Shown here in pieces: positions 22,302 through 59,777 of a DNA stretch of 64,000 nucleotides (position 1 is its first letter; each line of letters opens with the position of its first letter). Both the position numbers and the translations under genes were made by a program. Under the pieces are notes generated by a model that saw nothing but the letters and a program-made list of their open reading frames with translations, was not told the DNA's origin and did no database searches. This DNA is from Blastocatellia bacterium (GTDB lineage: Bacteria > Acidobacteriota > Blastocatellia > RBC074), in the NCBI GenBank assembly GCA_043783625.1, contig JAYVZE010000179.1, forward strand, positions 527 to 64,526, written 5' to 3'.

Positions 22302-23531
22302 TTATCCCTTCACACACACCACCTGCTTCAACGTATGCGCAATTTCCACCAAATCATGTTGCGCATTCATCACCGCTTCGATGTCTTTGTACGCCGCCGG
22401 AGTTTCGTCAATCACGTCTTCGTCCTTTCGGCATTCAACGCCTTCGGTAGCTTTCGCGTGATCCGCTGTAGTGAATCTGCGCTTGGCTTCGTTGCGCGAC
22501 ATCGCACGACCTGCGCCGTGGCTGCACGAATTGAAGCTTTCGGGATTTCCAAGTCCGCGCACGATGTATGAACGTGCGCCCATCGAACCGGGAATAATCC
22601 CGTAATCGCCGAGCGCGGCACGTACTGCGCCTTTGCGCGTCACCAGCACTTCTTCGCCGTAATGCGTTTCGCGGGCGACGTAGTTGTGATGGCAATTGAC
22701 GACTTGCAATTCGGCTTTGAATGGCTTCACTTCGCCGCTGTCCGTGATGGCGTCAATTAATTGTTCCATCATCAGCTTGCGGTTGTACATCGCAAAATCC
22801 TGCGCCCAACTGACGGCGTGAACGTAATCATCGAAATGCTCCGTGCCTTCGTTGAAGTACGCGAGGTCTTTGTCAGGCAAATTCGCAATATGATTTCGCA
22901 TATCGTTTTTCGCCATTTCAATGAAGAACGTGCCGATGCGATTGCCTACGCCGCGTGATCCGCTGTGCAACATGAACCAGACTTTATCGGATTCATCGAG
23001 GCAGACTTCAATAAAATGATTTCCACTACCAAGCGTACCCAGGTGATTGATCGTATTGCCACGATCCAGCTTCGGAAATTTTTCGCAAATTTCTCTGTAG
23101 CCAATTTCCAACTGCGCCCATACACCTTTTTGACGTTTCGGGATTTCTCCCCATCCGCCCTTATCGCGCCGTCCACCGTGATCGGTACGCCCGTGCGGAA
23201 TCGCTTGTTCAATCGCCTTACGAATCTTGCGGAGGTTGTCCGGCAAATCATTTGCGGTCAATGAAGTCTGTATTGCGGCGAGTCCACAGCCAATATCAAC
23301 ACCAACAGAAGCTGGGATAATCGCAGCCTTCGTTGCAATCACGCTGCCGATAGTGGCTCCAATTCCGAGATGTACGTCTGGCATTGCGGCTACCCATTTG
23401 AAAACAATCGGTAGCTTGGCGATATTTTGCAGTTGACGTTTTGCTTCATCTTCCATCTTGACGCCTTTTGTCCAGGCTTTGATGGGAACGCTGTTGGTTG
23501 TTTCGATGAGGTTGTATGTTGTGTTTGCCAT
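22302..23531 (-). CDS. rtcB: RNA-splicing ligase RtcB (3'-phosphate/5'-hydroxyl RNA ligase)
   Basis: 409 aa. MPDVHLGIGATIGSV, GVDIGCG and NSCSHGAGR motifs. Normal length, no intein. Confidence 0.9.
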   Translation of the reverse strand: MANTTYNLIETTNSVPIKAWTKGVKMEDEAKRQLQNIAKLPIVFKWVAAMPDVHLGIGATIGSVIATKAAIIPASVGVDIGCGLAAIQTSLTANDLPDNLRKIRKAIEQAIPHGRTDHGGRRDKGGWGEIPKRQKGVWAQLEIGYREICEKFPKLDRGNTINHLGTLGSGNHFIEVCLDESDKVWFMLHSGSRGVGNRIGTFFIEMAKNDMRNHIANLPDKDLAYFNEGTEHFDDYVHAVSWAQDFAMYNRKLMMEQLIDAITDSGEVKPFKAELQVVNCHHNYVARETHYGEEVLVTRKGAVRAALGDYGIIPGSMGARSYIVRGLGNPESFNSCSHGAGRAMSRNEAKRRFTTADHAKATEGVECRKDEDVIDETPAAYKDIEAVMNAQHDLVEIAHTLKQVVCVKG

Positions 23532-23547: not shown

Positions 23548-24321
23548 CTAACCATTCCGTAGCCGCCATAATCTCAGGCTGATACTTTTTTCGCTACGAC
23601 CAAGCACTGTCATTGATTCCTTGATTAAATGACTAAGAATGAACGAGTCTTCTTCAGAAGACCAAAATTTTCGATTATCAATTTTTTTCATTGAATGAGG
23701 TCTGACCCATTCAGTCACTTGTCTGGCTTTCTCAATTTTTCGAGGTAATCCAAGACACCCTTTGTAATACATTGACGCCGTGAGAACTTGAGCATCTTCT
23801 TTGTAAACAGCTACGTTATAGACACCATCTCTAATGTTCCTTGAAGTGGTTTTTAATTTGCCCGTAACTTCTTCAATAAAACTGATGAAGCCTTTAGCCA
23901 GTGCCGTGCTATCGGTTGTGAGTGATAAGAACGGAAATCCATTTGCAGTTAAGCCCAAAGCACCATCTGCATCAATTATCCCACGATAATAATCAAGCTT
24001 AGAGAAGTTAACTTGTGGTGGAGCGATTACACTGGACTTTTGCCCTTCTGGCATTCCAAGCGCAATAAGCTGTTGGCGAAACTCAAAGCTATAAACTGTC
24101 CATTGTGCTGACTTATAAGCATCCTTAAAGTTCGTCTTTCTCGTTCGCTCCGTGACGGATGAGAAATAAGGAATCAGCTCTGCAAACTTTTCTAGGAGAC
24201 ATTTATCCTGCCAGCCAAGTTCAATTGCTAACGATCCTTTCTGTCCTTTGATTCGACGTAAGTGACCATCGGCTTGGATAAAGCCGAAAAGATACGCATA
24301 TTGAGGGCTGCTCAAGTTCAT
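23548..24321 (-). CDS. Free-standing double-motif LAGLIDADG homing endonuclease
   Basis: Two LAGLIDADG motifs, YLFGFIQADGHL and YYRGIIDADGAL. 257 aa. Stop lies 16 nt upstream of the rtcB start. Confidence 0.8.
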   Translation of the reverse strand: MNLSSPQYAYLFGFIQADGHLRRIKGQKGSLAIELGWQDKCLLEKFAELIPYFSSVTERTRKTNFKDAYKSAQWTVYSFEFRQQLIALGMPEGQKSSVIAPPQVNFSKLDYYRGIIDADGALGLTANGFPFLSLTTDSTALAKGFISFIEEVTGKLKTTSRNIRDGVYNVAVYKEDAQVLTASMYYKGCLGLPRKIEKARQVTEWVRPHSMKKIDNRKFWSSEEDSFILSHLIKESMTVLGRSEKSISLRLWRLRNG

Positions 24322-24364
24322 GTGATTTATTTAGAAATCGGAAGCGCGACAGGGCTGCGAGAAA

Positions 24365-25294
24365 TCATAATATTTCTGCCGTATAGTCTTCGTCAATTTC
24401 TTCTGCAATCTCTCTGAGGTCATCAATATGCTTTTTTATGAAGAATATGAAAATCTCTGCGTCTTCGTTATTGAGCTTCGATGTACTCGGTGATGAGAAA
24501 TATTCCTTTAGCGCGTTAAGCGGATACAAAATACGGCGAACCTCATATTCAACGGTATCATGAGCCTCAAGTATCCCTCGCCTAGTCATCTCATCTCTGA
24601 ACTTTGTTAGTACATTAGAAATAAGCTCAACGTGCATTCCTCCATATTCTGTGAGTGTATCCTTCCCAATACTTTCATAAATTTTCTCGAAGTAGTAACC
24701 CAAGGTTTGCGGGAAAATATGAGCGAGCTTCACTTCTCTATATGTTTGACGGTGTTCCATTTCCTCTTCCTTTAGTTTCTCTATTACATTCTTGAGTGTC
24801 GCGTTTAAGATTTCAGTTTGAGATTTAATCAACTCCAGCACGTCAACCGTAATATACTTGTTAGTGCCATCTGAATAATTGGTCATCAAGTCGAATGTTG
24901 TGTGACTCATGGAAATCCTAGATATGAAATTAAAGGATTTGTCCTTGCCTCGTTTTGTCGGATGCCCAACAGAATTATTTCTGATTTCTCGAATCTCATT
25001 TAGTTTTTCATCTGGCGTATACGGAATAGTTAACGCTTCAGCAAGATGCTCGACGGCATCTTGCTGAACGAACAAAACTTGGAGGATACCGTAAAGGATC
25101 AAGTACTTTTTGCCATGATCGTCAGGTTCTTCACTCTCTTCATACGCTCTTACAGCAAGTGTCGTATCGCCAATTACATCAAGCGAGCTGCACAACTTAC
25201 TCCATCTAGCTGTATTTTGTAGCAGTATGTGCTGTTTTCTTGGGTTATTAATCAAATCGCGTATTTGCGACTCTAATTCATGCGTATTACTCAT
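24365..25294 (-). CDS. Uncharacterised protein with an HEPN-like Rx5H motif (possible RNase/Abi-like effector)
   Basis: 309 aa. REIRNNSVGHPT fits R-x(4-6)-H. Sits between the Y-RNA region and the LAGLIDADG/rtcB genes on the same strand. Confidence 0.4.
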   Translation of the reverse strand: MSNTHELESQIRDLINNPRKQHILLQNTARWSKLCSSLDVIGDTTLAVRAYEESEEPDDHGKKYLILYGILQVLFVQQDAVEHLAEALTIPYTPDEKLNEIREIRNNSVGHPTKRGKDKSFNFISRISMSHTTFDLMTNYSDGTNKYITVDVLELIKSQTEILNATLKNVIEKLKEEEMEHRQTYREVKLAHIFPQTLGYYFEKIYESIGKDTLTEYGGMHVELISNVLTKFRDEMTRRGILEAHDTVEYEVRRILYPLNALKEYFSSPSTSKLNNEDAEIFIFFIKKHIDDLREIAEEIDEDYTAEIL

Positions 25295-25794
25295 AAATAA
25301 TTTTATTAGACTCGAACCGACAACCGTCTTGCGACGTACAGATAGTTTGGAAAACGCGATTCCCTTGCTTGTTTTTCCCCGCCTGAAAAATCAGGCCGCT
25401 ATAGGTTCTGCCTCAACCTCTATCCGTGACCGCCACACAATCGTTTTTGGTGCGCCTCTTCCTTTTCGGCGACGCGAGCGTATTGTCATCGTTTTAGATA
25501 ATTCATCAATCTTTTTTTCAAACGGCAGGCATTCAGCCTCCCTTGTTTTCAAGCCCCGAAGTGGGCGAGATACAATAGCCCAGGGCATCGCCCTGGGTGA
25601 ATGATACCGTGAGCCACAAGCCCTGCAAGGGCGAGATACCAATCAATTATTTCGCCCATTCAGGGCTTGCAAAATATTTATTGTGCTTCCCAGGGCGATG
25701 CCCTGGGCTATTGCATCCCGCTCTTTCAGAGCTTTAAGGCGACACTTCTACGCAATGAAAATATTTCAATCATTCCCTAAAAATAATGGTCGCG

Positions 25795-26017
25795 CTGTGA
25801 TCCGTCGTAACGTCCGGCGCGCAGGCAACAGTTTTTGAAACCGACGATTCGAACCGCAGGGACAAGGATCATTACGACCGAGTTTTTCGAGTAGCTCTTT
25901 GTCGCCGTGAACGATGCGGATGCCGCGTTTGACGTTGGTTTCAGAAGGGAATCCCCGTCTGCGTTTGCTGGTTCGTTCGCTGAAAAAAGGATTCGTCGAA
26001 ATTAGTTATTCTTGCCA
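25795..26017 (-). pseudogene. Small SEC-C metal-binding motif ORF, apparently frameshifted
   Basis: One frame gives [16 protein letters not shown] +1 shift continues [10 protein letters not shown]. Together these match the SecA C-terminal motif [19 protein letters not shown]. The ATG at 26017 opens a third frame that stops after 25 codons. Confidence 0.35.
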
Positions 26018-26100
26018 TATCAACCTCAATTTTTTGTGTGTCGCGCAGAACGAACTATATTCAGAGTTCGCGCTCTTGCGTGTTTCATTTGTAGCGTGAA

Positions 26101-26123
26101 GTAAAACCACGCTGAAGCGTGAA
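26101..26123 (-). terminator. Intrinsic terminator/attenuator after the Y-RNA region
   Basis: Minus-sense TTCACGCTTCAGCGTGGTTTTAC: a CACGC/GCGTG stem followed by a T-run. Confidence 0.45.
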
Positions 26124-26195
26124 CTCCGAACGCCTGATTTTCAAAGAATTCAATTAACACGGCGACAAGGATTTGAGAAACGTTTTTTGAGCTAT

Positions 26196-26267
26196 TGCTG
26201 TTACCAGCAAGCGGAAATTGAATCCGCAACCTTCCGTATCGCTACGGACGCTCTACCATGTAGTTCC
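26196..26267 (-). ncRNA. tRNA-like 3' module (D-loop-like, anticodon-like stem, T-arm, acceptor-like hairpin closed by GTAA)
   Basis: Minus-sense GGAACTACATGGTAGAGCGTCCGTAGCGATACGGAAGGTTGCGGATTCAATTTCCGCTTGCTGGTAACAGCAA. T-arm GCGGA-TTCAATT-TCCGC. Acceptor-like stem TTGCTG-GTAA-CAGCAA. Confidence 0.5.
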
Positions 26268-26388
26268 TCTGGCATTCGCCGATGGATGAGTTTCGAGTTT
26301 TGGGTTTTGAGTTTCGCGGTACATTCCTCGAAACCTAAAACTTGAAACTCGAAACAAATTTAATGACGACAAGTGAGTGTGAAACGTT

Positions 26389-26452
26389 GTTGTTGCTCTA
26401 TCTCCTGAGCTACTGCGCTTTCACGCAGGCAGGGATTCGCACCCTGCGACCC
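26389..26452 (-). ncRNA. Y-RNA (YrlA-like) tRNA-mimic module 2: circularly permuted T-arm/acceptor/D-arm
   Basis: Minus-sense GGGTCGCAGGGTGCGAATCCCTGCCTGCGTGAAAGCGCAGTAGCTCAGGAGATAGAGC. T-arm, then acceptor stem CTGCGT/GCGCAG closed by a GAAA loop, then D-arm GCTC-AGGAGATA-GAGC. Flanked by long GTTTCGAG-unit hairpins. Confidence 0.6.
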
Positions 26453-26589
26453 ACAAGTTAGATGTAGTTCCACTAGCATTCGTCACTAAGATAGTTTCGA
26501 GTTTCGAGTTTTGGGTTTCGAGGTGCTCTCCCCGAAACGCAAAACTCGAAACTAAATTTTTACGACGACAAGAAGTGATGAAACGTTTT

Positions 26590-26655
26590 CGCGCTCTACT
26601 ACTGAGCTACTGCCCCATAAGTTTGGTGGAGCAGGCGGGATTCGCACCCGCGACC
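26590..26655 (-). ncRNA. Y-RNA (YrlA-like) tRNA-mimic module 1: circularly permuted T-arm/acceptor/D-arm
   Basis: Minus-sense GGTCGCGGGTGCGAATCCCGCCTGCTCCACCAAACTTATGGGGCAGTAGCTCAGTAGTAGAGC. 3' acceptor strand CTGCTCC-A-CCA pairs with the downstream GGGGCAG (G3-U wobble). D-arm GCTC-AGTAGTA-GAGC follows. Confidence 0.6.
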
Positions 26656-26761
26656 TAGTCATTGAAAGATGTAGTTCCATCGGGCATTCGTCGTAAGTTA
26701 GTTAAAAGTGATGAGCAATGAGTGATGAGTTTTTTCTCAAAACTCGGAGCTATTTTTTATG

Positions 26762-26827
26762 GCGACAAAATCGGTGAGAGTTCTCCCCCGTAAATGGAGG
26801 AGGCGGGGGTCGAACCCGCTATAACCA
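26762..26827 (-). ncRNA. Y-RNA-like tRNA-mimic module 0: T-arm plus a loop-closed acceptor stem, degenerate D-arm
   Basis: Minus-sense GCGGGTTCGACCCCCGC CTCCTCC A TTTAC GGGGGAG. The acceptor strands pair (G3-U) across a 6-nt loop. Confidence 0.45.
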
Positions 26828-26942
26828 ATGTACTCCCAACCAGCATTCGCCAGGATGTAAAGTCTATCGAGTCTGTTGAGTCCATAGAGTCTGGCGAGTC
26901 ACTTGTCGTGACGACTCCAAAGACTCTACGGACTCTAAGACT

Positions 26943-28496
26943 TCATAGACTCACATTTTCAATCACGCCGATCCAATGATCTGCGCCGATTTTTCCGCTG
27001 GCGAATTCGGCAATGACTTCAAAAACCTGATCGGAAAATCCGCCAATGTTCATGATGTCGGTGCTTTCTTTCGCCTGCGTAGTTCCGTACGGTTGAATGT
27101 CAATGCATACCATTTTGGCGTTAGCATTACGCGCTTTGAACTGCTTCCATTCTTCCATCGTCTGCGTTGCGCCGTAGCGTTTTGAATCTACCCACGATTC
27201 GTTATCCGAAACGTAGATGATTAAATCTCCGCTGGCTTTGCGTTTGTTCAGTGCTGCCAACGGTGCGCTGCAATTGGTTCCACCTGAAGGCAGGTTCGCC
27301 AATTTCTGTGCATTCGTCATCACACTGTCACGCGGATTCAACGTAGCTTTCACCACTTCGTCCGAGAACGGAATGACTTCAGCATTTGGATTTTTGCGCA
27401 GGATCGCAGCAGCTACGAGAGCAGCTACGTCAATGCAACGAACCTTGCTGGTTGCGCCTTTGCGATGACCAGTCACGGGGGATTGCATCGAGCCTGACAC
27501 GTCAGGGCAAACATAAATTTTGCCGTTGAATTCAGGCACGTTGCTGATGGAAATTTCCATCGCATCCTGCAATGCTTCACGCACGACAGCAGGAACGTCT
27601 TCACTGGCGTTTGTGTACGCCGTCATTAACTGATACGGGAACACGCGAGCTTTTTTAATGGCGTGAGAATCACGTAAGCGATTCGCAATCAATTCAGGCA
27701 TTCCGTCCTGCGAGAAAACGTCGTGACGCAGAAACGTATTCAGATTCATGCGCGTCATTTGCCACGGTGCGGTTCGCGCAATTGCAGCCCATTCGTATTT
27801 GCTGAGTTCAAGCGAAGTCAACATTTGGAATGGCACATTCGGAATTTCCGCACGATCCCCCTGTTTGAATTTTTCGTAAGTTTTCACCAGCGCAGGCAAT
27901 TCGTCAGCGTTGATGTCGCGTCCGATGAAATATCCAAATAATGCCTCACGGCTTTTGCTGTTGGGCGTTGGATGAATCATCTTCACAATGTCAGCGAACG
28001 AAGGCGCAGCTCCGATGGAAGCTTTGAAAACAGCTTCGTCATCGCGTGAAGCGAACCATTCGCGGATCAAACGTTTTGGTGCAGAGCCGAGCGATTTACG
28101 ACCAACCACACCAGAGCGCAAAATTTGCACAAAGGTGCGCAGCATTTTCCCGCTATCAATGACACGTGGAAAAATTGCTTCGAGTAACTTCACGTCACGC
28201 ATGGCGAGGATGGCGCACAGCAACGCGGGCATATCTTTCATGAAGCCGCGCTGACGCGCAAAAATTGCCGTTTGCGCAATGAATTTCGGTTCAAGTTCCT
28301 GACAAAGCGCAATCACTTTGGCAAGCTGTTCTTCGGCCTCGGCGTAAAAAGTCGAATTCAAACACCCGGTCGCAGCGTACTGCGCGAGCATCTGTTTGGG
28401 CGTGAAGGTGTATGCCTGACCGCACGCTTCGTTGACAGTATCGGTTTTCGGCAGTAACTTACCGATGATTGAAGTAAACAAATTCTTGTTTGCCAT
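26943..28496 (-). CDS. rsr: Ro60-related protein Rsr (TROVE domain plus C-terminal vWA with MIDAS)
   Basis: 517 aa. C-terminal vWA with MIDAS DxSxS (VCPDVSGSM). Helical TROVE-size N-terminal region. Located next to tRNA-like Y-RNA modules, rtcB and rtcR. Confidence 0.7.
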   Translation of the reverse strand: MANKNLFTSIIGKLLPKTDTVNEACGQAYTFTPKQMLAQYAATGCLNSTFYAEAEEQLAKVIALCQELEPKFIAQTAIFARQRGFMKDMPALLCAILAMRDVKLLEAIFPRVIDSGKMLRTFVQILRSGVVGRKSLGSAPKRLIREWFASRDDEAVFKASIGAAPSFADIVKMIHPTPNSKSREALFGYFIGRDINADELPALVKTYEKFKQGDRAEIPNVPFQMLTSLELSKYEWAAIARTAPWQMTRMNLNTFLRHDVFSQDGMPELIANRLRDSHAIKKARVFPYQLMTAYTNASEDVPAVVREALQDAMEISISNVPEFNGKIYVCPDVSGSMQSPVTGHRKGATSKVRCIDVAALVAAAILRKNPNAEVIPFSDEVVKATLNPRDSVMTNAQKLANLPSGGTNCSAPLAALNKRKASGDLIIYVSDNESWVDSKRYGATQTMEEWKQFKARNANAKMVCIDIQPYGTTQAKESTDIMNIGGFSDQVFEVIAEFASGKIGADHWIGVIENVSL

Positions 28497-28583: not shown

Positions 28584-28600
28584 TGCGAGAGCCGTGCCAG
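28584..28600 (-). promoter_or_regulatory. Sigma54 (-24/-12) promoter driving rsr and the downstream operon
   Basis: Minus-sense CTGGCACGGCTCTCGCA, which is TGGCAC-N5-TCGCA with GG-N10-GC spacing. Lies about 85 nt upstream of the rsr start. The RtcR activator is encoded nearby. Confidence 0.6.
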
Positions 28601-28792: not shown

Positions 28793-30253
28793 ATGACTAA
28801 TTTCAACTGGCTTCTGGATGGAAGCATCGTCGGCGTCTATTTGTTGATTACGATGATCGCCGGACTTTGGGTGCGTAAGTACGTTGGCAAGGTCGAACAT
28901 TTTTTGGTCGCCGGACGTGAGATGGATTTATTTCTTGGCATCGCATCGCTGGCAGCTACGGAGTTCGGCATCGTGACTTGTATGTACACGGCGCAGAACG
29001 GCTACAAATTTGGTTTTGCCGGAGCGACTCCCGGAATCCTGATGGCGGCTGCGATGTTGATTGTCGGGCTGACGGGGTTTTGCATTAAGCCGTTACGCGA
29101 TTCGGGCGTGATGACTTTGCCGGAATTGATTGATAAAAAATTCGGGCCGAATATTCGCTGGGCGGCGGGAGTCGTGATCGTTCTCGGCGGCTTGTTGAAT
29201 ATGGGAGTTTTCCTGCGCGTCGGTGGGCAGTTTCTGGTTTTAGTCGCGGGAATGGACGTTCGATATTTAGAAGTGATGATGACGGCGTTGTTGATTGGCG
29301 TGGCAGTCTACACAATCCTCGGCGGAATGCTGTCAGTTTTGGTGACGGACTTCCTGCAATTCATTGTGATGAGTGCCGGATTGATTGCGGTGACGGTTTT
29401 AATTTTGGTCAATGTCGGATGGGAAAAATTGGTGACGACAGTTGAAGTCAATTACGGCGCGGCGGGCTTCAATCCATTTATCAATCCTGAAATGGGATGG
29501 GGCTATGTGGTCTTCAATGCGTTGCTGAATACGGCAGCGGTGTTGACGTGGCAGACAACCATTGCGCGGGTGTTGGCGGCGAAAAATACGGAGACCGGAC
29601 GAAAAATTTATACGCGGACAAGTTTCTTTTTTGTCTGCCGATTTTTGATCCCGGGTATTTGGGGAATCGCGGCGCTGGCGGCTTTGGGGCCGCAGGTTGA
29701 TTCGCTCGAAGCGATGCCGAAATATCTGGCAGTGGCGGTTCCGGCGGGCTTGATGGGATTGCTCGTAGCGGCCATGTTGGCGGCGGATATGTCCACGGAT
29801 TCCTCTTATATGTTGTCGTGGGGAAGCGTGATTTATAACGATATTATGGCTCCATTTCACAAGGGGCAATGGTCAGAGAAAAAGGGTTTGCTGATTAACC
29901 GTTTCATCGTCGCCATCATCGGCGTTTTCCTGCTGATTTACGGATTATGGTACAAGCTGGAAGGCGGCTTGTGGGATTATCTGACGTTGACGGGAACAAT
30001 TTATCTGGCGAGTATTTCGGTTTTGCTCATTGCGTGTTGTTACTGGGATCGTGCGAATAGCTGGGGCGCGGCGGCGGCGATTGTGGTCAGTGCGGTTATT
30101 CCGGTGGCATATTTGGTGATGGAAAAAATGGACAGTACCAAAGCCTTTACGAAAAGTGTCGGCCCGCATTATTCAGGCATCGCAGCCTTTGCTGGTGCGG
30201 CTCTGGCGATGATCATCGGATCATTAATCAAACCGCAGGCACAGAAAAATTAA
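28793..30253 (+). CDS. Sodium:solute symporter family (SSF) transporter
   Basis: 486 aa, about 13 TM segments. SSF-like motifs (GREMDLFLGIASLAATEFG). Confidence 0.7.
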   Translation: MTNFNWLLDGSIVGVYLLITMIAGLWVRKYVGKVEHFLVAGREMDLFLGIASLAATEFGIVTCMYTAQNGYKFGFAGATPGILMAAAMLIVGLTGFCIKPLRDSGVMTLPELIDKKFGPNIRWAAGVVIVLGGLLNMGVFLRVGGQFLVLVAGMDVRYLEVMMTALLIGVAVYTILGGMLSVLVTDFLQFIVMSAGLIAVTVLILVNVGWEKLVTTVEVNYGAAGFNPFINPEMGWGYVVFNALLNTAAVLTWQTTIARVLAAKNTETGRKIYTRTSFFFVCRFLIPGIWGIAALAALGPQVDSLEAMPKYLAVAVPAGLMGLLVAAMLAADMSTDSSYMLSWGSVIYNDIMAPFHKGQWSEKKGLLINRFIVAIIGVFLLIYGLWYKLEGGLWDYLTLTGTIYLASISVLLIACCYWDRANSWGAAAAIVVSAVIPVAYLVMEKMDSTKAFTKSVGPHYSGIAAFAGAALAMIIGSLIKPQAQKN

Positions 30254-30663: not shown

Positions 30664-32265
30664 ATGCCGCAAAAACGAACAGTAGTTTTTGGAATCCTCG
30701 GAATTAAAAAAGATTCCGGCAAAGGTGTTGCACGCCGGGAGAAATGGCGTCCGACAATTGCGCTTTGTTCGCACGAAGATTTGCTCATCCATCGCTTTGA
30801 ATTATTAACCCAGCCGACCCATCACGAATTAGCCAAACAAATTATCGCTGACATCAAAGACGTTTCTCCTGAAACTGAGATCAAGACGCATCTGGTACAA
30901 TTTGATGACGCATGGGACTTTGAAGAAGTCTACGGGCAATTACACGATTTTTTCCGTAATTATTCCTTCAAGCCGGACAAGGAAGATTATCTGGTGCATC
31001 TTTCGACGGGGACGCATACACTTCAGATTTGCCTGTTTTTATTAACTGAATCGCGTCATTTGCCCGGACAATTGATTCAAACTTCACCGCCGAAATATCG
31101 TCGCGGAAAGGTGAGTGATCCGGGCACGTACAACATTATTGATTTGGATTTATCGAAGTACGGCTTACTGACTTCGCGCTTTCAGCAGGAGCAAAAAGAA
31201 GCGACTTCGTTTTTGAAATCCGGCATCGAAACGCGCAACAAACAATTCAATAAATTAATTGCCCGCATCGAACAGGTAGCGATTGCTTCACGCGATCCGC
31301 TGTTATTAATGGGGCCGACGGGAGCAGGAAAATCACGATTGGCGAAACGTATCTTCGCCCTAAAAAAAGCCAGACATCAGATGAGCGGAAATTTTGTCGA
31401 AGTGAATTGCGCGACGATTCGCGGCGACGGTGCAATGTCAGCTTTGTTCGGGCATATCAAGGGCGCGTTCACGGGTGCGATCAATCCACGTGACGGTCAT
31501 CTTCGTGCGGCGAATAATGGCGTTCTATTTTTAGATGAAATCGGCGAGCTGGGATTAGACGAACAGGCGATGTTGCTGCGTGCGCTGGAAGACAAAGTAT
31601 TTCTGCCACTCGGCTCCGACAAAGAAGTCAAAAGCGAATTTCAATTAATTGCCGGAACCAACCGCGATTTATCGGAACGCGTAAGCAGCGGAAAATTCCG
31701 CGATGATCTGTTGGCGCGAATAAATTTATGGACATTTAGCTTGCCATCCTTGCGCGAACGCAAAGAAGACATCGAACCGAATTTGCAATTTGAACTGGAT
31801 CAATTCGCCGAACGCAACGGGACGCGGGTGACGTTCAGCCGCGAAGCTTTGAATCATTTTGTAAAATTCGCAACGTCGAACGAAGCCAGTTGGAACGGGA
31901 ATTTTCGTGATTTAAATGGCGCGATTATTCGGATGGCGACATTCGCCGAAAGCGGCAGAATTTCAGTGGAAGTTGTGAACGAAGAAATTGAACGGCTTCG
32001 TGCTGCGTGGCAAAATTCCAGCGCGACGTTTGGCGAAGGTTTGGAAAATTTATTGGATGAAAATGTGATTGCGGAACTAGATTTATTTGATCGAATGCAG
32101 CTCCTGAAGGTGATTGAAATTTGTCGTGAATCGCGTTCGCTTTCTGAAGCCGGACGCAAACTGTTTCATTCTTCCCGTGAACAGAAAAAAACTGCCAACG
32201 ATGCAGATCGGTTGCGAAAATATTTGATGAGATTTGGATTGCGTTGGGAAGGAATTAAAGAATAG
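30664..32265 (+). CDS. rtcR: Sigma54-dependent transcriptional activator RtcR (N-terminal CARF-like domain, AAA+ sigma54-interaction domain, C-terminal HTH)
   Basis: 533 aa (E. coli RtcR is 532 aa). Walker A GPTGAGKS, GAFTGA motif, Walker B FLDEIGEL. The N-terminal 180-aa non-receiver domain is consistent with CARF. Confidence 0.75.
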   Translation: MPQKRTVVFGILGIKKDSGKGVARREKWRPTIALCSHEDLLIHRFELLTQPTHHELAKQIIADIKDVSPETEIKTHLVQFDDAWDFEEVYGQLHDFFRNYSFKPDKEDYLVHLSTGTHTLQICLFLLTESRHLPGQLIQTSPPKYRRGKVSDPGTYNIIDLDLSKYGLLTSRFQQEQKEATSFLKSGIETRNKQFNKLIARIEQVAIASRDPLLLMGPTGAGKSRLAKRIFALKKARHQMSGNFVEVNCATIRGDGAMSALFGHIKGAFTGAINPRDGHLRAANNGVLFLDEIGELGLDEQAMLLRALEDKVFLPLGSDKEVKSEFQLIAGTNRDLSERVSSGKFRDDLLARINLWTFSLPSLRERKEDIEPNLQFELDQFAERNGTRVTFSREALNHFVKFATSNEASWNGNFRDLNGAIIRMATFAESGRISVEVVNEEIERLRAAWQNSSATFGEGLENLLDENVIAELDLFDRMQLLKVIEICRESRSLSEAGRKLFHSSREQKKTANDADRLRKYLMRFGLRWEGIKE

Positions 32266-45120: not shown

Positions 45121-45330
45121 GCGTGGGATCGGTGGGATCAATGGGATCAAGCCTTTATTTACAGGCTTTTTCTTTGATCCCATTGCTGTTTTTGCGTGGG
45201 ATCACGTGGGATCAAGATTCCCTCTGCTATTGTTTCCTTAGCCCCTTGATCCCACGTGATCCCACCATTTTTTACCCGTGGGATCAACGCAAACCCTTGT
45301 GTTTATTGAGTTGATCCCATTGATCCCACG
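45121..45330. repeat. Iteron array (GTGGGATCA-core repeats in both orientations): candidate replication origin of the island
   Basis: About 12 copies of TGGGATCA or TGATCCCA within 210 bp, immediately upstream of the primase/helicase gene. Each unit contains GATC. Confidence 0.7.
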
Positions 45331-52492: not shown

Positions 52493-53464
52493 TCAGACGT
52501 AGGTAAAGTTGCGACTCGCCACCGTCGTCGCAAAATATTCGACGGTCGTGTCACGATCTTTGCCGATTTGCGTTTTCAATTCTTCCAGTCCTGAGAATTT
52601 TCTTTCGCCTCGTAGTCGGTGCAAAAAACGAATCCGAATGGTTTTGCCGTACAACGAATTTTCAAAGTCAATGACATGCGTCTCGACCTTAGATTCAAGA
52701 TCAAGTCCGATGGTTGGACGCTTGCCGACATTCGTCACACTGCGATGCCAGACGCCATCAATCAGGGCGAGTGTGACGTAGACTCCGTCCGCAGGCAGGA
52801 CGCGATTTTGTACCGCCAGATTCGCTGTTGGAAAAGAAATCGTGCGACCCAGCTTACGTCCTTCGATGACAATTCCTTCAATGCCGTAAGCGCGTCCCAG
52901 CATTCGACGGGCTAAATTGACGCGCCCGGATTTCAAGAGATGGCGAACGGAAGTCGAACTGATGCGATGGTTATGCAACCTGATTTCCGGCACTTCGGAG
53001 GCGAGAAATCCATGTCGTTCGGCTTCAACTTTGAGTAATTCAATATTGCCGCGCCGATCCTTGCCAAAGGCGAAACCTTTGCCTAAATGAACTTCCTGCG
53101 CACCTAAAGTTTGCACCATAAACCGTTCAATAAATTCTTCCGCCGAAAGTGCAGCGAGTTCACGGCTGAATGGCACGACGAGAACTTGTTGCATGCCGAG
53201 CTGCTTTAATCCTTCCATTTTCTGCGCAAACGTTTGTAACAGGGGCGGTGCAGATTCGGGTCTTAAAACCTGACGTGGATGCGGATCAAAAGTAATTAAA
53301 GTGGGCGTGGCTCCAGTTAAGAAAGCCCGTTCGACGACGGTTTTGACAATCGCCTGATGGCCCAGATGCAAGCCGTCAAAGACTCCGATGGTGAGAACAG
53401 AAGGGCGTTTGAGGTCAGGATTTTGGAGATCGTGAATAATATTCATAGTAGCAGTTCGCAGCAA
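52493..53464 (-). CDS. ribF: Bifunctional riboflavin kinase/FMN adenylyltransferase RibF
   Basis: N-terminal [11 protein letters not shown] nucleotidyltransferase motif. C-terminal riboflavin kinase domain. 323 aa. Confidence 0.85.
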
Positions 53465-53540
53465 GAAAGTTCGCAGTTCGCAGCGAAGAAAGTTCGCAGG
53501 AAAACTGCGAACTGCGAACTAAATACTGCGAACTTTCTGA

Positions 53541-57879: not shown

Positions 57880-58028
57880 AAGGTTTTTCGTGGTCGGTGG
57901 TCAGTGATCGGGGGTCGGTAGCAGGCATCTCTGCCGACCCCCGACCACTGACCACCGACCACCATTAATAAATGCCGCTTGAATCCTCAGTGGCGCGTTG
58001 TTACTATACGAATGTCTTCGTACGATGA

Positions 58029-59777
58029 GTGCGATTTCCCCCTGCTCGTTTCCAGTTTTCAAGGCTCGAAAAGCCTTTCACCAATGAAGGAGTAATAGTG
58101 AAAAATAACTGGCTAAGATTTTTACTGATCGGTGTAGTTCTGGTGATGGTTGCCAGTGGTGCGGCTCTACGTCCAACTTCTGCCGTGCAAAAGACGGATG
58201 AGGATCGTGCGTCTGAACAAAAGCTGATGACGCAATTCGTCGAAGCGCAGGAAATTATTCGTGAGAAATATCTCGAAGAAATAGATTATGAAATCCTGAC
58301 GAAAACGGGAATTCTGGGAATGTTGCGAACGCTTGATCCGCACTCTTCTTACTACGATAAAAAATCTTTTGATGATTTGCGCAACGATCAACGAAGCCAG
58401 TATTTCGGGATCGGCTCCGTGATTGGCATGCGCGATGGAAAAGTTTTTATTCAAGAGCCGTTCCGCGATACTCCTTCGACGCGGGCAGGCTTGCGCTACG
58501 GCGATCAGATTGTTGGCATTGATGGACAGAACACCGAAACGTGGGATTCCAATCAGGTCACGAAAAAATTGCGCGGAGAGCAGGGCACGAAAGTGAATGT
58601 TTCCGTTCGTCGCCCAGGCGTCGCGGAACCTGTGACCGTCACGATTGAACGCGATGCGATTGCACAGCTTTCCATTACCGGAACATATCTGGCGCGTCCC
58701 GGCATCGGCTACATCAATATGCCGCGCGGTTTTCATTCGACGACGAATGACGAATTGACGGCGGCGATTGCGAATTTGAAAGAGCAGGGCGCGACTTCGA
58801 TGATTCTTGATTTACGCGATGATCCGGGTGGATTTCTGGATCAGGCGATCAAGGTTTCCGATAAATTTTTACAGCGCGGACAAACGGTTTTGTCAGTTCG
58901 TTATCGGGAAGGGAAATTTCAGGATCGTGAATTACAAGCGGAATCTGGTTCGCCGGAATCATTTCCTCTCGTTCTTCTCATCAATAAAAATTCGGCTTCG
59001 GCTTCAGAAATTGTGGCAGGAGCCATTCAGGATCACGACCGTGGTTTGATTGTTGGCGAAAATAGTTTCGGAAAAGGCTTGGTGCAAACCATCATCCCGC
59101 TCAATGGTGGAGCCGGATTGACGTTGACGACGGCGCGTTATTACACGCCCAGCGGTCGGTTGATTCAGCGCGATTATTCGAGCAGTTCGATGTACGATTA
59201 TTTTACGCATCGTTCCGGCGCAGAGGCTACGGACGAAGCGAAGAAAAATGCGAAGCAGTGGATGACAGATTTACGCCGTCCGGTGTTTGGCGGTGGCGGC
59301 ATTAATCCTGATGTAAAAGTCAAAGATACGCGCATTGAAAATATTCAGGACATCACGAATCAAACGCAGATCGTTTTGTTAAGTCCGATTTTCCTTTTCA
59401 CTCGTGAATTGGTGGGCGGACAGGTTCCAGTGGCGAAAGATTTTAAATTGAATGGCCCGCCGAATTTCGATCACGCTCTGAAGTCTAATGAATTTGTGAT
59501 TACGGATGAAATTGCGAAAAATTTTCGTGAAGCAATTAATTCGTTTTTAGGGAAGCATCCAGAAATTACGATGACTCCGGCACAGATAGATGAGCATTTT
59601 GCCTGGGCTAAAAATCGGGTGCGATATGAAGTTTTGCTGGCGGCTTATGGCAGCGATAAGGCGCAGCAGGCAATGATTGAAACGGATGCGCAGATGCAGA
59701 AAGCGATCAGCGAATTACCGAATGCCGCCGCGTTAGCGGATCGCGCGCGCCGTAATCGCAGCGTTTCCAAAAAATAA
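58029..59777 (+). CDS. S41 family C-terminal processing (tail-specific) protease with PDZ domain; likely start is the GTG at 58098 after GGAG
   Basis: PDZ region GDQIVGIDG. S41 catalytic region NSASASEIVAGAIQDHDRGLIVGENSFGKG. N-terminal TM/signal. Confidence 0.75.
   Translation: MRFPPARFQFSRLEKPFTNEGVIVKNNWLRFLLIGVVLVMVASGAALRPTSAVQKTDEDRASEQKLMTQFVEAQEIIREKYLEEIDYEILTKTGILGMLRTLDPHSSYYDKKSFDDLRNDQRSQYFGIGSVIGMRDGKVFIQEPFRDTPSTRAGLRYGDQIVGIDGQNTETWDSNQVTKKLRGEQGTKVNVSVRRPGVAEPVTVTIERDAIAQLSITGTYLARPGIGYINMPRGFHSTTNDELTAAIANLKEQGATSMILDLRDDPGGFLDQAIKVSDKFLQRGQTVLSVRYREGKFQDRELQAESGSPESFPLVLLINKNSASASEIVAGAIQDHDRGLIVGENSFGKGLVQTIIPLNGGAGLTLTTARYYTPSGRLIQRDYSSSSMYDYFTHRSGAEATDEAKKNAKQWMTDLRRPVFGGGGINPDVKVKDTRIENIQDITNQTQIVLLSPIFLFTRELVGGQVPVAKDFKLNGPPNFDHALKSNEFVITDEIAKNFREAINSFLGKHPEITMTPAQIDEHFAWAKNRVRYEVLLAAYGSDKAQQAMIETDAQMQKAISELPNAAALADRARRNRSVSKK

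Follow-up and report, generated by a model that had tools for sequence, protein, structure and literature searches.

We analyzed a 64,000-nucleotide (nt) stretch of DNA from a soil acidobacterium (Blastocatellia bacterium, contig JAYVZE010000179.1; hereafter the window), in which rsr, the gene for the bacterial ortholog of the RNA-quality-control protein Ro60, is followed on its own strand by what are very probably four tandem Y-RNA genes, named m4, m3, m2 and m1 in 5' to 3' order (minus strand, 26159-26853). The array begins 90 nt past the rsr stop codon, and the order of the locus is rtcR, rsr, Y RNAs and rtcB (Table 1). The Rsr protein scored 82 bits against the NCBIfam Rsr equivalog, far below its cut-off of 900; it has thousands of homologs, several of which carry the name 60 kDa SS-A/Ro ribonucleoprotein, and judged by these homologs the DNA belongs to Acidobacteriota, class Blastocatellia. 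Among related loci, rtcR stands divergently 5' of rsr in 23 and rtcB lies 3' of it on the same strand in 33. Salmonella likewise has its Y-RNA genes 3' of rsr (10.1101/312249) and transcribes them under RtcR control (PMC4201824), and the array studied here lies where Chen 2014 looks for YrlA RNAs, within 4 kb of the Ro60 ortholog and on the same strand.

Table 1. Genes, Y-RNA modules, spacers and signal candidates of the locus, in the direction of rsr transcription. Positions are those of the window; MFE, minimum free energy; TRF, Tandem Repeats Finder; YrlA, Rfam RF02553.
Feature	Positions	Strand	Details
rtcR, sigma-54 enhancer-binding activator of RNA-repair operons	30664-32265	+	Pfam RtcR 2e-76, Sigma54_activat 1.1e-46; divergent from rsr
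sigma-54-type promoter candidate TGGCACGGCTCTCGC (TGGCAC-N5-TCGC)	28585-28599	-	about 90 nt 5' of rsr start codon; 1 mismatch to TGGCAC-N5-TTGC
rsr, bacterial Ro60 ortholog	26943-28496	-	517 amino acids; Pfam vWA_Ro60 1.1e-22, TROVE 6.9e-8
spacer, rsr stop codon to m4	26854-26942	-	hairpin of inverted 9-nt AGTCTATAG repeats; MFE -39 kcal/mol, z -5.1; TRF period 9/18
m4, minihelix type	26759-26853	-	Ro-site motif GGCGAAUG 26844-26851; T arm 26803-26819
m4, YrlA match	26756-26853	-	26.2 bits, E 6e-3, full length
spacer, m4 to m3	26695-26758	-	AGTGATG heptamers, small hairpin; MFE -11.4 kcal/mol, z -3.2; found by TRF
m3, full YrlA architecture	26562-26694	-	Ro-site motif GACGAAUG 26685-26692; T arm 26635-26651 (loop UGCGAAU)
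m3, YrlA match	26559-26694	-	58.8 bits, E 2.2e-12, full length
spacer, m3 to m2	26487-26561	-	hairpin of inverted GTTTCGA heptamers; MFE -33.3 kcal/mol, z -7.8; outside both flanking terminal stems
m2, full YrlA architecture	26363-26486	-	Ro-site motif GACGAAUG 26477-26484
m2, YrlA match	26360-26486	-	61.1 bits, E 4.9e-13, full length
spacer, m2 to m1	26283-26362	-	hairpin of inverted GTTTCGA/GAGTTTC heptamers; MFE -28.8 kcal/mol, z -5.9
m1, split-D (D-loop-permuted) type	26159-26282	-	Ro-site motif GGCGAAUG 26273-26280
m1, YrlA match	26156-26282	-	35.4 bits, E 1.3e-5, full length
terminator-like hairpin UCACGC-UUCA-GCGUGG, then UUUUACUU	26107-26122	-	37 nt past m1; from a consensus scan only
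rtcB, RNA ligase	22302-23531	-	Pfam RtcB 1.1e-130; same strand as rsr, 3' of the Y-RNA array

ARAGORN found no transfer RNA (tRNA) or transfer-messenger RNA (tmRNA) in 26125-26935, and Rfam at its gathering scores was empty there as well, as an earlier note on this DNA had foreseen in stating that a naive tRNA scan would miss such modules or call fragments. When the 1.6-kb region 25500-27100 was searched in E-value mode, the Rfam YrlA model (RF02553, gathering score 69) matched all four modules, and the Rfam Y_RNA model (RF00019, the metazoan/Deinococcus type) gave no match at E ≤ 10, so that of the two families to which the note had pointed only YrlA responded, below its gathering score. The pattern G.CGAA.{0,1}G...TTGTCG.C occurs in four places only in the 64 kb of both strands, and these are the modules. 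We further searched 81 sequences, namely the window and 80 loci with Rsr relatives of 63-89% identity, with a model built from four m1-type RNAs (R1); it gave 230 matches, all 230 on the rsr strand. The YrlA E-values, the uniqueness of the pattern and this strand bias together argue that the modules are not due to chance. In the relatives, chimeras that join the D arm of one Y module to the T arm of the next score 41-42 bits with the Rfam tRNA model, above its threshold (L017 6103-6223, L008 6223-6341, L005 6001-6123), and such calls are likely to give rise to false tRNA annotations in these genomes.

The folding that had been proposed as a check gave, for each of the four units taken alone, a terminal stem, a second stem (stem 2), a T arm and a closed acceptor hairpin. 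From its 5' end a unit reads G(G/A)CGAAUGC, a stem strand GGAAC or GGGAG and a conserved (C/G)UACAU; the T arm and an acceptor-like hairpin with the 3' acceptor strand first make up the middle; and the complementary strand GUUUC or CUCUC followed by (C/U)UUGUCG(C/U)C forms the 3' part. The boxes CGAAUGC and GGAACUACAU, whose recurrence upstream of the modules had been pointed out in the earlier note, do stand before every module, including the fourth. In each RNA the Ro60-site motif GNCGAAUG pairs with CUUGUCGNC, and the 5' and 3' ends thereby form a helix: all four are headed by GGCGAAUG or GACGAAUG, paired to UCGCC or UCGUC, in agreement with GNCGAAN0-1G, the probable Ro60 contact (Chen 2014, PMC4201824). 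Since the CGAATGC box is this published motif, it forms together with its 3' partner the Ro-binding element, and the terminal helix that carries GNCGAAUG opposite CUUGUCGNC is therefore predicted to be the Rsr-binding module. The pairs of this helix co-vary in the relatives under each of the canonical, minihelix and split-D models. Stem 2 (GGAAC/GUUUC) and the conserved CUACAU then lead into a tRNA-shaped effector module. What the four RNAs share is limited to the Ro site, stem 2, the CUACAU linker, the T arm and the acceptor-like helix, and they differ in the D arm, in the anticodon arm, in how the acceptor is closed and in where the Ro-binding stem is attached.

m2 and m3 show the full YrlA architecture in the Rfam alignment, in the folds and in the 98.2% pairing of 115 related RNAs: the Ro-binding stem occupies the place of the anticodon stem, and the two ends of the acceptor are joined by a loop. 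In m3, the 3' acceptor strand CUGCUCC (26628-26634) is followed by A-CCA (26624-26627), a loop to 26617, the 5' acceptor strand GGGGCAG (26610-26616) and a local D arm (26593-26607), making a 7-bp acceptor of the tRNA-Ala type with G3:U70, A73 and an encoded CCA, in which five of the seven pairs are identical to those of the clade tRNA-Ala (GGGGCUA/UAGCUCC-A-CCA). m3 scored 141.8 bits with model R2, and its T arm and acceptor also drew a sub-threshold match to the permuted-tmRNA model. m2 has a 6-bp acceptor, GCGCAG/CUGCGU, closed by GAAA and with a G:U at the loop-proximal pair, a T loop UGCGAAU and a local D arm GCUC-AGGAGAUA-GAGC; it scored 94.3 bits with R2 and has an ortholog at the same array position in the related locus L003 (5986-6110).

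m1 and m4 depart from this architecture, m1 by a long-range D stem and m4 by the lack of a D arm; they would work like YrlA, yet are architectural variants of it. In m4 the T arm is stacked on a 7-bp acceptor helix (hairpin 26783-26802, GGGGGAG/CUCCUCC with G3:U70 and the loop AUUUAC), no anticodon-stem equivalent is present, and the 5' linker has a conserved GG (ACAUUGG); the MFE fold had a z of -3.5 and model R3 gave 105.5 bits. The effector module of m1, read 5' to 3', has first GG-UA, the 3' strand of the D stem (GAGC, 26250-26253) and an anticodon-arm-like hairpin UCCGUA-GCGA-UACGGA (26233-26248), continues with a 5-nt variable loop AGGUU, the T arm (26211-26227) and an acceptor hairpin whose pairs are all Watson-Crick (26195-26210, GUAA loop), and ends with UA, the 5' strand of the D stem (GCUC, 26189-26192) and an A-rich linker to stem 2. 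The GAGC-GCUC pairing thus encloses the 6-bp GCGA-loop hairpin, the variable loop, the T arm and the acceptor hairpin in a four-way junction, in MFE and centroid folds. On one side of the opening lie U8-A9, the D-stem 5' strand and A14-R15, and on the other G18-G19-N-A21, the D-stem 3' strand and R26. As modelled, m1 is a nearly complete tRNA body whose acceptor and anticodon arms are capped by tetraloops and whose D loop is opened between 15 and 18, at the variable pocket, to admit the Ro-binding stem.

These structures bear out the central claim of the earlier note, which had described tandem Y-RNA-like genes built on circularly permuted tRNA mimics in the YrlA topology; the Rfam YrlA matches, the rsr gene 5' of the array, the Ro-site motif and the covariation in 75 of the 81 sequences all agree with it. 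Its three modules correspond to m1, m2 and m3, in which UAGCUCA follows the T arm, 3' acceptor strand, loop and 5' acceptor strand, but m4 had escaped it. The order that it gave, from the T arm through the loop-joined acceptor strands to the D arm, and the replacement of the anticodon stem by the Ro-binding stem hold for m2 and m3; m1, on the other hand, has only the 5' half of the D arm at that place, with the partner GAGC 5' of the T arm, and receives the Ro-binding stem through the D loop while having an anticodon-like arm, and m4 has no equivalent of that stem. The single module said to carry A-CCA is m3. The acceptor G3-U wobble is found in m3 and m4 but not in m2, where the G:U lies at the loop-proximal pair, nor in m1.

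After merging, the matches amounted to 227 modules in 75 of the 81 sequences, with one to six per locus: 99 canonical, 62 minihelix, 18 split-D and 48 other, among which is the short stem-loop kind described below. In L003 the modules follow one another as in the window (m4, m3, m2, m1). The proposed pairs were present in 98.2% of alignment cells for the canonical type (115 distinct RNAs; 27 of 31 pairs compensatory), in 93% for the minihelix type (63 sequences; 18 of 24) and in 97.7% for the split-D type (18 orthologs; 26 of 34), and when the partners were moved by 1-3 columns as a control the pairing fell to 33-64%. The split-D structure was also recovered by RNAalifold from a plain MAFFT alignment of 21 RNAs. 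A metagenome scan with the split-D 5' signature returned at least 120 matches, 80 loci of which were examined, and 74 of these 80 contained a full-length split-D RNA, so that the type exists in at least 74 loci. Among the matches listed, 73 distinct sequences were 97.6% paired, with 28 of 34 pairs compensatory, rsr lay on the same strand as the RNA in all 50 loci that held rsr, and the RNA was 108-1283 nt 3' of rsr in 44 of these 50. The D stem of the split-D type changes in a compensatory way to CAGC/GCUG in L002 and to GCGC/GCGC in L230, L277 and L218, and no cell of it is unpaired. A scan of viral contigs with ACTACATGGN{1,2}AGAGC gave 120 matches that we regard as chance, with a split-D RNA in none of the 80 loci examined.

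Two further kinds of Y RNA were seen in the relatives. One is a plain stem-loop of about 60 nt (GCCGAAUGC...CUUGUCGGC) with no tRNA-like part, which is the first gene past rsr in many of them (L002 3956-4019, L004 5678-5736, L005 5641-5705, L006 5642-5704, L007 1581-1640, L008 5677-5737) and is absent from the window, L001 and L003. The other combines a D arm of the class II tRNA kind (GCGG-AAUUGGUA-ACGC) with a variable-arm hairpin (L001 6281-6421, L007 2489-2629, L008 6636-6774, L016 6796-6933, L014 6028-6166); it closes the array in L001 and L007, taking the position that the split-D RNA has in the window.

The modules also carry the marks of tRNA tertiary structure. Among the 99 modules with a local D arm, 15 have G at T-loop position 55 and all 15 of them have A18-G19, and 82 of the 84 with U55 have G18-G19; the 18:55 contact thus changes from G:U to A:G in step, and the covariation holds in 97 of the 99 RNAs. 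The Levitt pair 15:48 was seen as G:C in 77 split-D RNAs and as A:U in 6. Judged from these alignments, both observations agree with an elbow like that of tRNA, which the Salmonella YrlA structure also shows. At the acceptor, 32 of 115 canonical rows and 14 of 63 minihelix rows have G:U at position 3:70, in comparison with 1-7 such wobbles at the other acceptor positions, and G3:U70 is kept while pairs 5-7 vary (GGGGCAG, GGGGCCA, GGGGCCG, GGGGCGG), including in metagenome-assembled genomes (MAGs) labelled Verrucomicrobia. A 7-bp stem followed by N-CCA was found in 13 of the 99 modules and by N-ACA in 12, and CCA is encoded by 33 of 36 tRNA genes of the clade. The alanine identity set of the m3 type, that is G1-G4, G3:U70, A73, a 7-bp stem and often an encoded CCA, is kept across Acidobacteriota and Verrucomicrobiota. 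These acceptor features fit descent from tRNA genes.

The spacers between the modules are themselves structured. The three long spacer hairpins are near-perfect and consist of inverted tandem repeats of 7 or 9 nt. The earlier note had taken intervening hairpins of 120-140 nt made of GTTTCGAG units as candidate Ro-binding stems; the repeat hairpins are in fact 60-90 nt long and lie outside the terminal stems, and two of them are built of such units, while the rsr-adjacent one uses AGTCTATAG and 26695-26758 uses AGTGATG. We reject them as Ro-binding stems since they stand between complete RNAs, their units differ between loci and similar hairpins occur elsewhere; the helix that the note was seeking is the CGAAUGC box paired with CUUGUCGNC at the RNA 3' end. 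Many spacers in other loci measure just 10-20 nt, and 32 spacers of 45-160 nt mostly form similar hairpins from unrelated heptamers, with a median z of -4.3. GTTTCGAGTTT is confined to the array, save for one match with one mismatch at 58048. Similar hairpins of inverted 7-10-nt repeats were also noticed at 57890-57963, 45124-45328 and 53451-53520 of the window, for example (GTGGTCG)4 facing (CCGACCA)4; being of the same type as the Y-RNA spacers, they seem to form with them a genome-wide class of intergenic hairpin.

From the sequence evidence we put the probability at roughly 85% that the four RNAs are genuine Y RNAs of the YrlA kind, one of them, m1, a new architectural variant, with expression and Rsr binding predicted. 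Several findings weigh against this assignment. None of the four modules reaches the Rfam gathering score of 69, and across 18 related loci a single module passes it. G at T-loop position 55 in m2 and m3 makes the pseudouridine 55 of Salmonella YrlA impossible there. The covariation alignments were fitted to the models and their counts are inflated by related sequences, which the slid controls and RNAalifold mitigate. The D stem of m1 is, apart from the changes given above, invariant, and its long-range pairing therefore rests on four compensatory sequences and 100% pairing. Heptamer hairpins outside the array weaken a processing role specific to Y RNAs. Finally, the promoter and terminator candidates are consensus matches only, and the sigma-54 pattern is not enriched across the window, so that the promoter candidate rests on its position and on the neighbouring rtcR only.

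The alternative that survives best, though we consider it improbable, is that the modules are cis-acting structures in the 3' untranslated region of the rsr mRNA, such as sites of Rsr autoregulation or stabilizers of an rsr-rtcB transcript. The stretch from rsr to the array lacks a promoter-like site, sigma-70-like sites show no enrichment, the array sets in 90 nt past the stop codon, and the Y RNAs of M. smegmatis come from a single precursor, which makes co-transcription expected in any case. In the systems that have been studied, however, such modules accumulate as separate Rsr-bound RNAs (Chen 2014). Every module of the array has its own closed terminal stem, and the long perfect hairpins between modules are typical of processing or protection sites; in some loci modules also stand 5' of rsr, where such a role does not fit. 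It is far less probable that the modules are decayed tRNA-gene remnants or attachment-site scars beside rsr with no function of their own. The relics of tRNA 3' ends in the acceptor loops, the CCA encoded in the clade tRNA genes, the tRNA arrays 5' of rsr in some relatives and a mobile-looking insertion nearby that the relatives lack could be read in this way, but scars would not keep 93-98% pairing with most pairs compensatory across 18 to 115 sequences, nor an invariant Ro-site motif with its 3' partner, the rsr strand in 230 of 230 matches and an orthologous order across genomes, and we reject this reading. A third alternative, hardly credible and likewise rejected, would make m3, and m4 with it, either the tRNA-like half of a permuted tmRNA in two pieces or a permuted gene for a decoding tRNA: the permuted-tmRNA model (RF04321) does match the m3 T arm, CUGCUCC-ACCA, loop and GGGGCAG with its tRNA-Ala/tmRNA-type acceptor (G3:U70, A73, CCA) at 33.7 bits (E 1e-4), but this falls short of the gathering score of 47 and takes in just positions 36-95 of the 213 in the model, a tag reading frame and a pseudoknot region are both missing, the sequence runs on into the D arm and Ro-binding stem, ARAGORN finds no tmRNA in the window, and neither the cloverleaf with free ends nor the 7-nt anticodon loop of a tRNA (RF00005) is present, since the acceptor ends are loop-joined, m3 has no anticodon arm and the 4-nt loop of the m1 anticodon-like arm makes decoding impossible.

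If the four are Y RNAs, they would most likely be transcribed together with rsr, as the sigma-54/RtcR-type promoter candidate and the terminator-like hairpin suggest; the latter is the probable end of the rsr/Y-RNA transcription unit. The spacer hairpins would probably keep the folds from interfering with one another and mark the sites at which the individual RNAs are cut free or protected at their 3' ends. By analogy with Deinococcus and Salmonella, the RNAs would bind Rsr and gate its cavity or tether it to partners that recognize a tRNA elbow or minihelix, and an RtcR-controlled response to tRNA damage may be the setting in which they act. In M. smegmatis a 7-bp YrlA acceptor is cut by RNase P and CCA is then added (Chen 2014, PMC4201824); m3 and m4 have acceptors of this permissive length, and a cut in the acceptor loop may therefore turn them into RNAs of two pieces whose 3' end resembles that of a tRNA. 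With that precedent, the acceptor features are compatible with RNase P cleavage and charging. We also consider a bolder possibility, which we regard as unlikely: that the m3 type, and perhaps the m4 type, matures into an RNase P-cut two-piece Y RNA whose free CCA can be charged by alanyl-tRNA synthetase and that, separately, the split-D form is a second, independent graft of a whole tRNA body on the Ro-binding stem with a partner of its own. If this were true, an aminoacylated, Rsr-bound tRNA mimic could take part in the response to tRNA damage as a sensor, a decoy or a delivery vehicle.

The surroundings of the array contain several other features. A sodium:solute symporter gene (28793-30253, plus strand) sits between rtcR and rsr and separates rtcR from its presumed target promoter; among the loci compared it was found by tblastn (E ≤ 1e-6) only in the window, L001 and L003. 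Between the array and rtcB, at 23548-25294 on the minus strand, lie a 309-amino-acid open reading frame (ORF309) and a 257-amino-acid LAGLIDADG_3 reading frame. ORF309 has no Pfam or NCBIfam match, the LAGLIDADG frame and ORF131 belong to no NCBIfam family, and the pair has no counterpart in any of the 80 related loci; it is probably a recent insertion. Just 3' of the array, a small reading frame (25777-26018, minus strand) encodes a SEC-C-like CPCGSNRRF and continues with FKNCC in another frame, a break that the window shares with L007 (2174-2400); it could be a frameshifted or degenerate zinc-motif peptide. Two Acido-Lenti-1 motifs (RF01687; 25552-25597 on the minus strand and 25689-25733 on the plus strand) stand in inverted orientation to each other at a distance of about 91 nt, within a palindromic unit of about 200 nt (25540-25745; MFE -116.5 kcal/mol, z -11). 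Paired units of this kind also lie 3' of or within the rsr/Y-RNA arrays of four related loci (L007 1908-2118, L003 7003-7206, L010 7736-7937, L014 6163-6370), their arm sequences changing together across these and the window, and the unit may be a mobile or bidirectional element and not a single small RNA. In some Pyrinomonadaceae MAGs, arrays of 9-17 tRNA genes stand directly 5' of rsr on its strand (L011 30-909, L012 682-2758, L013 59-1245, L018 293-3872), and many of these genes start with U1 (TGTGG..., TTCGGG...); the count of 33 CCA-encoding genes in 36 given above refers to such genes.

The pattern of sharing among the four RNAs suggests that their functional core is the T-arm/acceptor minihelix together with the elbow. 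To the question of what bacterial Y RNAs bind through their tRNA-like domain (Chen 2014, PMC4201824; 10.1101/312249), the window locus and its relatives bring a natural dissection of this domain, with ready-made variants for pull-down and structural work. The split-D form indicates that the variable pocket of the D loop can serve to attach a tRNA fold to a carrier helix, which is relevant to the design of tRNA scaffolds. Standard annotation misses nearly all Y RNAs of this large soil clade, since their YrlA scores stay under the Rfam threshold.

The closest known system is that of Salmonella Typhimurium, in which YrlA is likewise encoded 3' of rsr in an RtcR-controlled rsr/Y-RNA/rtcB locus. 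Its YrlA also has GNCGAAN0-1G in a stem formed by the RNA ends, a T arm, a closed acceptor-like hairpin (6 bp, as in m2), a D arm and YUAY past stem 2, and its Ro-binding stem takes the place of the anticodon stem, with no anticodon loop (10.1101/312249). Salmonella has two genes, however, and the window has four, all sub-threshold in Rfam; U55/G18 there stands against G55/A18 in m2 and m3; and the 7-bp alanine-type acceptor with encoded ACCA in m3, the architectures of m1 and m4 and the long repeat hairpins between genes set the window further apart. Chen 2014 (PMC4201824) already described or anticipated multi-copy YrlA genes, a Y RNA with a T arm only and possible aminoacylation. The T-arm-only RNA is YrlB of Mycobacterium smegmatis, which resembles m4, and several Y RNAs of this species come from one precursor; in that species, unlike the window, the Y RNAs lie 5' of rsr and are not under RtcR, and CCA is completed after transcription and not encoded as in m3. 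Yrn1 of Deinococcus radiodurans, which tethers Rsr to polynucleotide phosphorylase, shares with m1 the T arm and possibly a closed anticodon-like arm, but it keeps the ordinary tRNA order (Chen 2014, PMC4201824), whereas m1 has its acceptor closed into a hairpin and receives the Ro-binding stem via the D loop. Two-piece tmRNA (RF04321) also places the T arm and the 3' acceptor strand with CCA before the 5' acceptor strand and has an alanine-type G3:U70, but the modules have no tag frame, pseudoknots or anticodon loop, and their halves stay joined to the Ro-binding stem. The permuted tRNA genes of Cyanidioschyzon merolae show the same precedence of T arm and 3' acceptor strand over the 5' acceptor strand. 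In the open-access literature, the supplementary tables of Chen 2014 aside, we found no description of the D-loop-opened form. Beyond the open-access papers go the arrays of up to six architecturally distinct paralogs, the widespread and rsr-linked split-D architecture, the G55/A18 variant of the elbow and the conserved alanine-type acceptor.

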